DNA from: an uncultured Chloroflexia bacterium
GTDB lineage: Bacteria; Chloroflexota; Limnocylindria; Limnocylindrales; CSP1-4
Assembly: GCA_963819655.1 (NCBI GenBank)
Contig: CAWFXA010000003.1
Span: 544,001-608,000, forward strand
Reading direction: 5' to 3'
DNA: 64,000 nt
Below the pieces are notes generated by a model. It was given only the letters and a program-made list of their open reading frames with translations. It ran no database searches and was not told the origin of the DNA. A program made the position numbers and the translations under genes. Position 1 is the first letter of the stretch, and each line of letters starts with the position of its first letter. Positions 22,686 through 62,390 of this stretch are shown in pieces.

Positions 22686-23294
22686 ATGAAGCTGACCGCA
22701 TCGATGATGCTGACCGTGGACGGCGTGTACCAGGGCCCCGGCGGCCCCGACGAGGACCGGCGCGGCGGGTTCGACCGCGGCGGTTGGACTGCGGCGTACG
22801 CCGACGAGGAGATGTGGCCATTCCTGACCTCGTGGTTCGAGCGCGCGGACGCGTTCCTCCTCGGGCGCAAGACCTGGGAGATCTGGCTGCCGTACTGGCC
22901 GCATCACGACAGCGGCGATCCGGTCTCCCACGGCATCAACGTCCTGCCCAAGTACGTGCCCTCGACCACGCTCAAGGATCCGACGTGGCAGAACACCCAC
23001 GTGATCGACGGCGACGTCGAGGCGGCGGTCCGCGAGCTCAAGGCGAAGCCCGGGCGCGAGCTCCAGGTCCACGGCAGCGGCGTCCTCCTCCGCTGGCTGC
23101 TCGAGCGCGACCTCGTCGACGAGCTCAACCTGCGGATCTACCCGGTCATCGTGGGCGACGGGCTCCGACTCTTCCCGGAGCACGGCCAGACGCACAACCT
23201 GGAGCTGGTCGAGTCGCGCTCGATCCCGTCCGGCGTGATGCTCCAGACGTACCGACCGGCCGGCCGCGCGACCTTCGCGAACGCCGGGGAGTGA
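22686..23294 (+). CDS. Dihydrofolate reductase-like / RibD C-terminal family protein
   Basis: TVDGVYQGPGGPDED, LLGRKTWE, PKYVPSTTL, VHGSG, YPVIVGDGLRLF. Confidence 0.92.
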   Translation: MKLTASMMLTVDGVYQGPGGPDEDRRGGFDRGGWTAAYADEEMWPFLTSWFERADAFLLGRKTWEIWLPYWPHHDSGDPVSHGINVLPKYVPSTTLKDPTWQNTHVIDGDVEAAVRELKAKPGRELQVHGSGVLLRWLLERDLVDELNLRIYPVIVGDGLRLFPEHGQTHNLELVESRSIPSGVMLQTYRPAGRATFANAGE

Positions 23295-58434: not shown

Positions 58435-58468
58435 TGCCATGTCTCGCGTGCGGTCTAGTCTTGAGGCC

Positions 58469-59611
58469 ATGAATCTGGTCGTGGCTTCGTTCGTCACCGT
58501 CGACGGCATCGTCGAGGCGCCGGGGTTCGACGAGCACCGCAGCGGCCGTAACGCCTGGGCTCTCCGCGTCCAGAACGAGGAGGATCGGGAATACAACAAG
58601 GCCCAGGCGATGTCGGCGGACGCATTCCTGCTGGGCCGTCGGACGTGGCAGATCTGGGCGGCGTTCTGGCCGACCGCCAGCGGCGGCGATCCGGAACTGA
58701 CCGAGCAGATAAATCGCATCCCGAAGTACGTCGTCTCCAACTCGTTGAAGCGGGCGGACTGGAGCAACTCGACCATCATCTCGGGGGACCTGGCCGCTCA
58801 GGTCGCGAAGCTGAAGGCGCAGCCGGGCGGCGACCTGATGGTGTTCGGCAGTCCGGACCTGGTCGATGAGCTCCTGCGACATGACCTCGTGGACGAATAT
58901 CGACTGCAGGTCTACCCGGTCATCCTGGGCAGCGGCAAGCGCCTGTTCCGAGACCGCATCGACACGCACCACCTACGCCTCGTCGGTTCGCGCACCTTCA
59001 GTTCGGGAGTCGTTCTTCTGACGTATGCACCAAACCCCGACGAGCCGACGAGCCGCTTCGTCGAGGAATACCGGTGGACGAACGAGCAGGTCCGGTCCCT
59101 GCAGGCAGCGGAAGACATCGACCGCACGTTGGCGACCGTCCTCTTCGCGGACATCGTCGACTCGACCGGTCGCGCAGCCGCCATGGGCGACCGGGCCTGG
59201 AAGAAGCTCCTCGAGCAGCACCATCGAGTGGTCCACGGCGAAGTCGAGCGGTGGCACGGCCAGAACGTGGAGTTCTCGGGCGATGGCGTGATGGCGGTCT
59301 TCGACGCGCCGACGCGAGCCCTTCGGTGTGCCTTCGACCTGGTTGATGCAGCGCGGGGCCTCGACGTCGAGATCCGCGCGGGTATCCATACGGGCGAGAT
59401 CGAACGGCGTGAGACCGGCATCGGGGGGATCGCCGTGCATATCGCCGCGCGACTGCTCGGTCCGGCGGAAACCGGCCAGGTAGTCGTGAGCAAGACCGTG
59501 CGTGACCTCGTCACCGGTACCGACCTGACGTTCCGGCCGCTCGGCGCGGTCAGCTTGCGTGGCGTGCCCGGGGAGTGGGAGCTGTTCGAGGCGAAGACGT
59601 CGGACCGCTGA
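58469..59611 (+). CDS. RibD-C/DHFR-like domain fused to a class III nucleotidyl cyclase
   Basis: N-terminal TVDGIVEAP, LLGRRTW, PKYVVS, YPVILGSGKRLF; C-terminal LFADIVDST, GDG, RAGIHTGE, AVHIAAR, LRGVPGEW. Confidence 0.9.
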   Translation: MNLVVASFVTVDGIVEAPGFDEHRSGRNAWALRVQNEEDREYNKAQAMSADAFLLGRRTWQIWAAFWPTASGGDPELTEQINRIPKYVVSNSLKRADWSNSTIISGDLAAQVAKLKAQPGGDLMVFGSPDLVDELLRHDLVDEYRLQVYPVILGSGKRLFRDRIDTHHLRLVGSRTFSSGVVLLTYAPNPDEPTSRFVEEYRWTNEQVRSLQAAEDIDRTLATVLFADIVDSTGRAAAMGDRAWKKLLEQHHRVVHGEVERWHGQNVEFSGDGVMAVFDAPTRALRCAFDLVDAARGLDVEIRAGIHTGEIERRETGIGGIAVHIAARLLGPAETGQVVVSKTVRDLVTGTDLTFRPLGAVSLRGVPGEWELFEAKTSDR

Positions 59612-59643: not shown

Positions 59644-60642
59644 CTACTCTCCGCGGCGGTGCGCGGCCGCGAGGCTCCCGAGCGCCTGCGGATCGAGTGA
59701 GTCGTGCGGGACGCCGGCAACGCGGCCCGGCGTGCGCGCCCACAACGTCGCCGTCCGCGTCCCGTTCAGGAGAGCTGCACGCTCGCCGACGACGGCGCCG
59801 GGGCCGATCTCTGCGACCTCGCGGTCGTCGACTTCGACGACGAAGATCCCGTCGAGGATCAGGAAGACTTCCGTTCCGGCCTGCCCCTGCCGTACCAGGG
59901 TCTCGCCCTCGGCGATGGTCCGGATCTTCGGCTTGGCCCCTCCGCTCATGATCGCGCTCGACAGCGATCGCTCGAGCGCCGACTCGACCGCGGCGACCAC
60001 GGTCGGCGAGTCCTGCGTGCCCCACGGCGTTCGCTCGCCGAACGAGTCCTTGAACCACTTCCCGAAGTCGATGACGCCGGACTTCTCGGTGAGTCGCCCC
60101 CCGTCGTCGTAGATCCAATGGCGCGGGAACGCGCTCGCGCCAACGAGCTCGTGGCTCGAGCTGCCGTCCGCGTTGATCGTCAGGGCGAGGGTCGTCCAGG
60201 CGATCGAGGGCCAGAACTGGACGAATGGCTTGTGGGGCACGGGGCGCGGCGTCGGAAGGCCCATCCGGCCGCCGACCGTCTGGACGAAGCGGACGGACGA
60301 TTCGCCGATCTCGGGCTCCGCCTGGATGTCCGGCAGCTGGACCGCGGGGAACCGCATGGCCGCCGGACCGACCTTGACGGTCGTCGCGCCGATGTGGCCC
60401 ATGCCCAGGTGGCCGGCGCGCACGATCCGGTCGCCGTCGACCTCGATGAACCCGCGTAGCTCGTTCGCTTCGCGGAAACGGTCGCTCGTCCGGAGCTGCT
60501 CGATATCCTCCAGCCGATCCGGCGGCGGTTCGTCGTAATGGGTGACGCCGAACTCGAACGGGATCTTCGATGGCCCGCTGATGGCCTCTGACGGGATCCA
60601 GGACACCGCGGTGACGGACGACTCGAAGCGCTGCGTGGCCAC
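59644..60642 (-). CDS. Unknown N-terminal domain plus a C-terminal cyclic-nucleotide-binding domain
   Basis: GETLVRQGQAGTEVFLILDG...IGPGAVVGERAAL..GTRTATL; GTG start after GAGGTG. Confidence 0.88.
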   Translation of the reverse strand: MATQRFESSVTAVSWIPSEAISGPSKIPFEFGVTHYDEPPPDRLEDIEQLRTSDRFREANELRGFIEVDGDRIVRAGHLGMGHIGATTVKVGPAAMRFPAVQLPDIQAEPEIGESSVRFVQTVGGRMGLPTPRPVPHKPFVQFWPSIAWTTLALTINADGSSSHELVGASAFPRHWIYDDGGRLTEKSGVIDFGKWFKDSFGERTPWGTQDSPTVVAAVESALERSLSSAIMSGGAKPKIRTIAEGETLVRQGQAGTEVFLILDGIFVVEVDDREVAEIGPGAVVGERAALLNGTRTATLWARTPGRVAGVPHDSLDPQALGSLAAAHRRGE

Positions 60643-60795: not shown

Positions 60796-62109
60796 TCAGT
60801 CTGCTCGCTCGAAGTAGCGCGTCGAGAGCCATCTCGCGACCCTCTCGCCGAGCCACGCTCCCTGGACGTCGGCTCGACGGAAATGGATGCCGATGAGGAT
60901 CCGACCTTCGATCGCGTCGTTGATGGGTCCACTGAATCGGGTGTACTGCCGGGTGACCGGCGACGCCCCGACGCTCGTCAGGCTGAACCGCATCCTGTTC
61001 GTCCCGAAGTACGCGCGAGCGGCGTTCATCGTCCCGGACGTGAAGCAGTTGAAGCCCGACGGTGGATCCGGGTAACCCGGGTTCGCGACCAGCGACGTCC
61101 AGCCGGTATCGGCCACGGTGGCTGGGTTCCCGTCTGTATCTGCCAGTTGGATCGCCGTCTGTGGCCGCCAGAAGTGCCAGTGATCCTTGTTCTCCCAACA
61201 CGCGATCAGCGAATCAGCAGCCGACATGGTCGTCATGACGAACAGCCGTGCCTGCTGGCTGGTCGACAGATGCCGCTTCGTGGCGATGTCACGGATCCCG
61301 CGGTTGAGCATCGCGAAGGGATTCACCGACGCCCAGCTGGCGATCTGGGCCTGCGCAGGGGTCCGGGTCGAGGTCGCCCCTCCAAGCCTCTTGACCTCGT
61401 TGAAGTCCCGGGCATAGGCGGCGCTCTCGAGTGGGTACGGCGCCCCGATGCGGTACTGGTCCGCGCGCCGCAACGTGAACGGCTTGACGAGGCTGACCCA
61501 TCCGAAGGAGTTCGCGTTGGCCGGTGGCAGTGGGCGCCAATCGCCGGGCAGGGTCCCGACCGCGAACGCGTACGTTCCGAAGCGGCCGTCGCCGACGCGA
61601 GCAGCGAGCATCTTCGCCGCTGCGGCCTTGCCGACCGTGATCCCGCGCTGCTTGGCTGTTCCACCGCGGATCTTCGCAAGGGACGTGGCGTAGAGGCTGT
61701 CCAGGCTCGTCTTCACCGCCGGCATCGTTGCCGGGGTGAGGCCGACGAGGACCCCATGCGCCGCGGCCGCGACGGCAGCCGCCTGGGAGGACGACCTCCG
61801 CGCGTTGAGTCCCTTCAGGTACGGCTCGTGGGTGTCGACGATCGCCATCACCGCGTCGTAGATCGCGCCGTGGACCATCGCGAGGTGGATCGGCGCGAGC
61901 GGGGGTGGCTGGCCGAGGCCGGGCGTCGTCGCGTCTGGGGGGTTGCCGATCGCGTTGACCGCGTTGATGTTCCACTCCAGGACCATGTTGTTCGGCTCGC
62001 CGGCCGCGACCGATGTGGCCGGGATCAGCAACGAGATCGCGATCAATGCGATCGCGATCGGTGCCGATAACCAGCGCCTGGTTCTCGAACCCTGCCGGGA
62101 GTGCGTCAT
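60796..62109 (-). CDS. Secreted vanadium-dependent haloperoxidase / PAP2-like protein
   Basis: Signal peptide, AMVHGAIYDAV, KDHWHFWRP, PSGF, GRILIGIHF. Confidence 0.85.
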   Translation of the reverse strand: MTHSRQGSRTRRWLSAPIAIALIAISLLIPATSVAAGEPNNMVLEWNINAVNAIGNPPDATTPGLGQPPPLAPIHLAMVHGAIYDAVMAIVDTHEPYLKGLNARRSSSQAAAVAAAAHGVLVGLTPATMPAVKTSLDSLYATSLAKIRGGTAKQRGITVGKAAAAKMLAARVGDGRFGTYAFAVGTLPGDWRPLPPANANSFGWVSLVKPFTLRRADQYRIGAPYPLESAAYARDFNEVKRLGGATSTRTPAQAQIASWASVNPFAMLNRGIRDIATKRHLSTSQQARLFVMTTMSAADSLIACWENKDHWHFWRPQTAIQLADTDGNPATVADTGWTSLVANPGYPDPPSGFNCFTSGTMNAARAYFGTNRMRFSLTSVGASPVTRQYTRFSGPINDAIEGRILIGIHFRRADVQGAWLGERVARWLSTRYFERAD

Positions 62110-62390
62110 GACGTCCTTCCTCGAACCTGCGGGTCGTGGTGGGCGCCGAGCGCCCTGGCTGTTGAGAGCTCGGATCGGACCCTCGAACGCCACCCGTGAT
62201 CGGTCATCGCGTCCCTCCGTTCGCCTTGTGGCCCCACCGCGACCCCGTCCGGGGTCGGCCTTCGCCGGCATCAGCCGTCTGGCGCACTGCCCCTCGGTGT
62301 GCGGGCCTTCTGATTCATAGGGGCGTCGAAATGAGGGATTCGGTTCGAATTTCTCCGGTACGCGATCGACGCTTCGGTACACTGGGGACC

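Follow-up and report, generated by a model that had tools for sequence, protein, structure and literature searches.

A dihydrofolate reductase-like/class III cyclase fusion of uncultured Chloroflexota with a probably derived Glu/Gly base-specifying pair

Which cyclic nucleotide is made by a class III cyclase whose two base-reading residues are not those of an adenylyl cyclase? This question is raised by a gene on contig CAWFXA010000003.1 (assembly GCA_963819655.1) of an uncultured Chloroflexia bacterium, of which we analysed positions 544,001 to 608,000 of the forward strand, a stretch of 64,000 nucleotides that is called the window here and to which all coordinates refer unless another source is named. 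The gene (58469..59611, + strand; 380 amino acids plus stop) joins a RibD_C or dihydrofolate reductase (DHFR)-like domain, through a conserved linker predicted to be helical, to a class III cyclase domain carrying Glu and Gly at the base-specifying positions. What is new here is a two-branch family of such fusions with a clade-diagnostic switch of this pair from Lys/Asp (K/D) to Glu/Gly (E/G), the latter state being probably derived from the former.

The open reading frame extends from 58439 to 59611 (+) and encodes 390 amino acids; a start at 58469 yields 380, which fits the length of the homologues (nearly all of the 120 listed have 380 amino acids), and matches to contigs of relatives set in at 58466-58470. 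Within the 390-residue frame, Pfam recognised RibD_C (PF01872; E 6e-26, 91.9 bits versus a cutoff of 24.1, profile positions 3-197 of 197) and Guanylate_cyc (PF00211; E 2.7e-8, 34.1 bits versus a cutoff of 21.9). The RibD_C domain (58475..59017, +; residues 3-183), delimited by Pfam, alignments with 8jsv and 2gd9, Foldseek and conservation, is followed by the linker (59036..59116, +; residues 190-216), predicted to be helical with low confidence, and by a cyclase catalytic domain of the LipJ/Rv1900c type (59117..59596, +), with His for the transition-state Asn. Among PDB sequences, the N-terminal half matched 8jsv (E 2.5e-31) and YyaP (2gd9; E 1.5e-23), and the cyclase half matched Rv1900c/LipJ (1ybt; E 1.9e-40) and Ma1120 (about 1e-22). 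The AlphaFold2 model of the protein (mean predicted local distance difference test score (pLDDT) 76.4, with a low-confidence linker) gave Foldseek template modelling (TM) scores of 0.88-0.92 to the Rv1900c catalytic domain and of about 0.8 to 8jsv. A preliminary description of this DNA, made by a model from the letters and their translations, had read one continuous frame joining a full RibD_C domain to a LipJ/Rv1900c-like cyclase, and the Pfam and PDB alignments bear this out. The protein is not LipJ itself, because the NCBIfam LipJ equivalog (NF058673) matches the cyclase part only (positions 280-447 of 449), at 180.9 bits versus a cutoff of 800. The promoter and terminator scan returned nothing beyond shuffled expectation.

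As for catalysis, the PDB alignments place D228 (in FADIV) and D272 (in GDG) opposite the metal-binding Asp residues and R303 at the phosphate site; the transition-state pair is formed by H324 and R328, which stand opposite the 'HIGAR' of Rv1900c, an active enzyme that likewise has His at the transition-state Asn site. In the 120 close homologues listed, which are 80-95% identical to the window's protein, D228, D272 and R328 are kept without exception and R303 and H324 in 119. The intact metal Asp residues and the H..AR pair of the preliminary description were confirmed in this way, and the cyclase is very probably active, since 119-120 of 120 members retain all of them. With regard to the base, Glu268 (codon 59270..59272, +), where adenylyl cyclases and the K/D branch have Lys, aligns with Lys101 of Ma1120 and with the Asn of 'EVNTAGDG' in Rv1900c; Gly317 (codon 59417..59419, +), where they have Asp, aligns with Asp157 of Ma1120 and with the Asp of 'TDVAG' in Rv1900c. 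The spacings (E to D, 4; G to H, 7; H to R, 4) equal those of E488/D492/G562/N569/R573 in Synechocystis Cya2, in the table of a review (PMC6005667) that also states Glu/Gly to be the Cya2 pair. Both the pair and its likeness to Cya2, as first proposed, hold on alignment, and E/G recurs in 119 of the 120 close homologues: positions 268/317/324/327 read E-G-H-A in 115, E-G-H-S in four and E-R-Y-A in one.

How widespread is this protein, and is its pair a peculiarity of one genome? The fusion family is large, uncharacterised and abundant in metagenomes and metagenome-assembled genomes (MAGs): among 8,000 candidates scored, 5,470 proteins matched at E <= 1e-10. Many members carry the Joint Genome Institute (JGI) label 'class 3 adenylate cyclase/dihydrofolate reductase', and some the NCBI label 'dihydrofolate reductase family protein', in MAGs of Candidatus Limnocylindrales or Chloroflexota. 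The set with one genome per species gave 31 loci with a full-length or near-full-length gene, nearly all of them in MAGs of Limnocylindrales or 'uncultured Chloroflexia', and among the 30 that could be scored the pair was E/G in 28, D/G in one and A/G in one. Within the window's class the distribution is patchy, with the fusion in 13 of 151 sampled genomes and in 41 of 401 of a wider sample; the latter tally includes the unpublished genomes G384 and G330, the loci of which were excluded from all residue counts. One copy of the fusion is present in the window's genome (3.49 Mb), besides 13 further cyclase-domain matches and 14 matches to the cyclic nucleotide-binding (CNB) domain.

The family has two branches. 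At the 50% clustering level, P0122 (58% identity) is the nearest full-length representative; it reads K/D, and so do 118 of 120 members of its own family of 5,033 proteins (E <= 1e-20), the other two reading K/E and R/D. This K/D branch has the same architecture, length and linker as the window's fusion, to which it is 57-58% identical, and occurs in the same bacterial class: the 28 published genomes of the class with loci comprise 15 K/D, 11 E/G, one A/G and one D/G, and one genus (g32) has species of both kinds. The linker residues W203, T204, E206 and Q207 are almost invariant in both branches. The branches differ in the pair and in an N-terminal loop (G56-R57-x-T59-x), which reads GRVTY in the K/D branch and GRRTW in the E/G branch. 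We then compared 120 E/G with 118 K/D sequences, requiring at least 95% conservation in both branches. Of the 119 sites conserved in both, 113 have the same residue and only six differ (60, 249, 255, 268, 305 and 317); the chance that both pre-specified base-reading sites fall among these six is (6/119)x(5/118), or about 0.002. Since two of only six differing conserved sites are the base-specifying pair, base recognition has very probably been re-tuned between the branches.

The trees point to the direction of the change. In a tree of 157 cyclase-domain rows (one sequence in every six from each list of 120, together with all representatives covering at least 150 residues), the fusions formed one clade (Shimodaira-Hasegawa-like approximate likelihood ratio test, SH-aLRT, 97) against a LipJ-type background that is mostly K/D, and the E/G clade lay inside it, with support of 100 and a stem of 0.36, adjoining K/D fusions. 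A full-length tree of 47 rows, from which the two specificity columns had been removed, recovered a core Gly-317 clade (100/99), at whose base the A/G protein L084 stood, while L085, with an E/G pair and K/D-like residues at the other diagnostic sites, fell into an unresolved node (91/88) with the core clade and the K/D protein L087. The E/G state is clade-diagnostic and no chance substitution, and it is probably derived from K/D; a single origin is the simplest reading of the trees, two separate origins being the less simple alternative. The loci of two species in a genus that is otherwise K/D, L101 (genome G141) and L109 (genome G237), combine E/G with K/D-like residues at the other diagnostic sites, and may represent intermediates or a second origin.

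What, then, would such an enzyme do? The explanation that we favour starts from a soluble nucleotidyl cyclase of the LipJ/Rv1900c type, preceded by a DHFR-like domain and a helical linker. Class III cyclases of this type act as homodimers. In this lineage the purine-reading pair would have changed from the adenine-reading Lys/Asp to Glu/Gly, a switch that would remove adenine-specific contacts and open the pocket to guanine, so that GTP may be accepted and the product may be cyclic GMP (cGMP), or cyclic AMP (cAMP) together with cGMP. The N-terminal domain would bind a dinucleotide of the NADPH type and/or a ligand resembling a pterin or pyrimidine, and would tune the cyclase through the linker, and the product would be read by proteins with a cyclic nucleoside monophosphate (cNMP)-binding domain encoded nearby. 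As to the switch itself, acceptance of GTP or dual specificity is its most likely outcome, with roughly even prospects of being correct. The explanation as a whole, of which substrate, ligand sensing, dimerisation and receptor link are predicted parts, may equally well be right or wrong in our estimate. The fuller picture, in which an NADPH- or pterin-regulated guanylyl cyclase arose in soil Chloroflexota by the K/D-to-E/G switch and feeds a cGMP network with a CNB-gated decarboxylase, a transporter of the major facilitator superfamily (MFS) and a 332-residue protein as receptors, is put forward tentatively, and we would rather doubt it in its entirety. Regarding the cGMP synthase of the preliminary description, the architecture, the catalytic residues and the E/G pair stood, while cGMP is a putative product, the corresponding Ma1120 double mutant still preferring ATP.

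Published work on Ma1120 and Cya2 bears on these predictions. Lys101 of Ma1120 is the main contact to adenine N1, and its single replacement by an acidic residue abolished adenylyl cyclase activity at pH 7.5; in the K101E/D157G double mutant, guanylyl cyclase activity rose 4-5 fold (PMC4215837). With the third change added (KDA to EGY), the structure showed guanine bound in a flipped orientation, and the enzyme is described as dual-specific (PMC7384201). Cya2 prefers GTP, using Glu with a supporting Lys, and Gly together with Tyr, according to a review (PMC6005667).

The receptor side of the explanation begins with the gene next door. Convergent with the fusion, with stop codons 32 bp apart, lies a gene (59644..60642, - strand) for a 332-residue protein with a C-terminal cNMP-binding domain (Pfam E 4.6e-14); within a 368-residue frame, the true start is the GTG at residue 37, 332 residues being the family length. 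The highly conserved N-terminal domain of about 235 residues (59937-60642, -) matched no Pfam family, and an Atlas search returned 'hypothetical protein' clusters only, at 0.89. It looks enzyme-like, being rich in invariant residues of the types His, Trp, Asp and Arg (e.g., H35-Y36-D37, H78, H164-E165 and H175-W176). The AlphaFold2 model (mean pLDDT 49.9) was too poor to classify the fold, the 32 aligned sequences all sharing at least 83% identity. This protein is a candidate receptor of the cyclase product.

When CNB genes were searched with a hidden Markov model based on the 14 CNB domains of this genome, 10 of 42 loci (9 of 39 without three duplicate loci) had one within +-4 kb of the fusion, all of the Gly-317 type; within +-1.5 kb the figures were 0 of 15 K/D loci versus 3 of 13 Gly-317 loci. 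Three architectures are found nearby, namely the 332-residue type, a pyridoxal phosphate (PLP)-dependent decarboxylase with a CNB domain (four species) and an MFS transporter with a CNB domain (three loci, two of them Pfam-confirmed). In the sample of 151 genomes, the gene for the 332-residue protein and the fusion occur together in four, all of the E/G type. The association of CNB genes with E/G fusions is a trend, in small numbers and among related genomes. On an RNA-library contig of a relative the 5' ends of the two genes are joined, with 116 nt between them. One metatranscriptome run gave short contigs (90-98% identity) covering parts of both genes, which may be DNA carry-over and thus do not demonstrate transcription; the sequencing runs held small shares of the window, at most 0.17. 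Genome G141 also has the gene for the 332-residue protein, on another contig than its fusion.

Several observations weigh against the explanation preferred here. On the receptor side, only 5 of 31 related loci have the gene for the 332-residue protein within 4 kb of the fusion, in varied arrangements, and 10 of the 151 genomes have it without any fusion. The phosphate-binding cassette of this CNB neighbour (G-E-R-A-A-L-L-N-G-T-R-T-A) was considered as a cGMP marker and rejected, as its R-T-A occurs in 7 of the 14 CNB domains of the genome as well as in 11 of 11 beside E/G cyclases. The best tree puts every Gly-317 row on the same side of a branch, but a single origin that takes in L085 has weak support (65/21, and 62% of bootstrap trees). 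Conservation within the E/G clade says little by itself, 163 of 380 sites being at least 99% conserved there. On the substrate side, a few relatives (L024/L083, L028 and L084) have Asp or Ala at position 268 while Gly317 is fixed, a pattern that fits an opening of the pocket at least as well as specific reading of guanine. LipJ-type representatives in general read K/D, D/K, N/D and many other pairs, and the four LipJ-type domains of the window's genome read E/G, E/H, A/D and N/D, without known guanylyl cyclase activity. Rv1900c reportedly tolerates mutation of its own N/D pair. Cya2 has a supporting Tyr beside its transition-state Arg that raises guanylyl cyclase activity; this site, A167 in Ma1120 (PMC4215837), is Ala327 in the fusion, and of the 120 clade members 116 have Ala there and 4 have Ser. 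Finally, the Ma1120 K101E/D157G mutant retained a 6.6-fold preference for ATP (kcat/Km 1.92 for ATP vs 0.29 for GTP), and ATP and GTP were used with equal kcat/Km only once A167Y was added (PMC4215837).

Two further observations on cyclase domains stand beside these points. Among the 157 cyclase domains of the tree, 20 (from the representatives P0151-P0269) have a swapped Asp/Lys pair, and most of them cluster together. About 4 kb past the end of the window (G000 C3:611899-613914), a 672-residue protein combines a long, helical repeat-like N-terminal region with a LipJ-type cyclase that reads N/D like Rv1900c.

The strongest competitor, which we regard as possible without favouring it, is that the protein is still essentially an adenylyl cyclase: in LipJ-type (class IIIc) enzymes the pair would add little to the choice of base, and its change would tune kinetics, pH dependence or regulation instead. 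The ATP preference of the Ma1120 double mutant, the missing Cya2-type Tyr, the variable pairs of LipJ-type cyclases (four different ones in this genome) and the JGI family name all speak for it. On the other side, both sites switched together and belong to only six diagnostic sites of 119, and the change replaces the main adenine N1 contact by an acidic residue, which as a single mutation abolished the adenylyl cyclase activity of Ma1120 at pH 7.5.

A second alternative concerns the N-terminal domain and is compatible with any cyclase substrate, namely that this domain is an active NADPH-dependent reductase and the protein bifunctional. Its motifs D12-G13, G56-R57-R58-T59-W60, S90, G127-S128 and G154-S155-G156-K157 recur in 117-120 of the 120 clade members, and the GRxT, Ser-rich strand-end and GSxxL motifs in 119-120, as strictly as in an enzyme. 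We take these loop motifs as putative NADPH contacts, going by what is known of DHFR. Furthermore, the title of the closest solved relative (8jsv) names a 'dihydrofolate reductase-like enzyme' with catalytic activity; several stand-alone paralogues (39-48% identity) exist in the genome; and NCBIfam offers a precedent by labelling LipJ a 'bifunctional lipase/adenylate cyclase'. However, the conserved linker (W203, T204, E206 and Q207) suggests coupling of the two domains, and the other LipJ-type cyclases of the genome have unrelated small N-terminal modules, as is usual for sensor domains. We hold a working reductase to be somewhat doubtful, and a role of the domain as a sensor of NADP(H) or pterin may be proposed from its motifs. 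There is also a hint that its pocket changed together with that of the cyclase, because one diagnostic and one near-diagnostic site sit in the N-terminal loop. One of the stand-alone RibD_C paralogues lies in the window itself (22689-23261, +; 48% identical to the N-terminal domain of the fusion), with at least three more elsewhere in the genome. A 612-residue open frame around another RibD_C match (G000 C3:625510) was considered as a second fusion and discarded, its upstream part being spurious.

Thirdly, the substrate might be another nucleotide (CTP, UTP, ITP or similar), which would make the fusion a non-canonical cNMP synthase, perhaps in a Pycsar-like pair of cyclase and CNB effector. 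The fixed Gly317 beside a position 268 that tolerates E, D or A would suit an opened pocket more than a specific guanine contact, and a cyclase beside a CNB-domain protein resembles Pycsar, with a weak PycC match (E 1.1e-6). Yet the PADLOC matches are partial and generic, covering residues 213-291 only for PycC and the CNB domain only for PycTIR; the CNB neighbours found elsewhere, a PLP decarboxylase and an MFS transporter, look metabolic rather than like abortive-infection effectors; and the fusion is a conserved single-copy family member and no island gene. Membership of Pycsar was rejected, since the PycC match is partial and the neighbour is without a Toll/interleukin-1 receptor (TIR) or transmembrane effector part, and we regard another nucleotide as quite unlikely. 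A catalytically dead pseudo-cyclase, serving as a binding or scaffold module, is the least probable of all, for the His in place of the canonical transition-state Asn that might suggest it is also found in active Rv1900c, and 119-120 of 120 clade members have kept the residues for metal, phosphate and transition state.

The wider neighbourhood deserves a brief description. The three genes upstream of the fusion (arsR, AHSA1 and hydrolase) keep their synteny in close relatives. The trio of L091 (1172-5122), from a genome of the same family, is 77-84% identical to that of the window, while the adjoining fusion is K/D, inverted and 59% identical; either fast divergence specific to this gene or replacement at a conserved locus would account for it. 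At L030 (2000-7200) the same six-gene synteny as in the window is found with nearly every gene frameshifted, which is most likely long-read assembly error and not decay; its fusion, considered as a replacement of 51% identity at the same locus, proved to be the same gene in this frameshift-ridden assembly. A protein of 528 residues (60796-62382, -), with weak, sub-threshold matches of the vanadium-chloroperoxidase kind (VCPO_N and VCPO_2nd), shares synteny with the fusion at L003 and L030. A second island of cyclic nucleotide signalling, at G000 C1:546095-552083, comprises two CNB-domain proteins and a 1256-residue open frame with two tandem cyclase domains.

Why does this family matter? Only a few bacterial systems of cGMP signalling are on record, and how class III cyclases choose between ATP and GTP is not yet settled. 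The two branches amount to a natural experiment, with shared architecture, length and catalytic residues and with six differences at commonly conserved sites, the base-reading pair included; because of this, reciprocal mutants would test the specificity rule directly. No description of a cyclase paired with a DHFR-like sensor or enzyme partner was found in the literature searched, nor any paper on a RibD_C/DHFR-like and cyclase fusion, many subscription papers lying outside the coverage of the search. If the product is cGMP, the nearby genes for CNB-gated decarboxylases and transporters would outline a new bacterial cGMP regulon, and through an NADPH- or pterin-regulated guanylyl cyclase a major uncultured lineage of soil would couple its cGMP signalling to redox or folate status.

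Among known systems, the closest likenesses of the N-terminal domain are the stand-alone RibD_C proteins of Leptospira interrogans (8jsv) and Bacillus subtilis (YyaP, 2gd9), which align with it end to end (TM about 0.8) and have no cyclase. Synechocystis Cya2 (2w01), a homodimeric class III enzyme, resembles the fusion in its Glu-Gly pair and motif spacing, and differs from it in being a CHASE2 membrane receptor with the canonical Asn and with the Tyr and supporting Lys, of which the fusion is without the Tyr (PMC6005667); it shares only about 22% identity with the fusion and ranked 41 in the fold search. The best match of the cyclase domain in both sequence and fold is Rv1900c of Mycobacterium tuberculosis (LipJ; 1ybt/1ybu; TM 0.88-0.92, 44-46% identity), which shares with it the His-for-Asn site and the short loop before the second specificity residue, and likewise places an enzyme-like N-terminal domain before a C-terminal cyclase; the N-terminal domain of LipJ is an alpha/beta-hydrolase, whereas that of the fusion is RibD_C, and its pair is Asn/Asp instead of Glu/Gly. 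Ma1120 of Mycobacterium avium (4wp9, 5d15, 5d0g and 5d0h) has the same subclass fold (TM about 0.9, 36-37% identity); it is naturally K/D, with Ala164 where the fusion has His. The Ma1120 chain that scored best against the fusion was the engineered KDA-to-EGY mutant, above the wild type, and in its base-specifying pair the fusion is the natural equivalent of the K101E/D157G double mutant.

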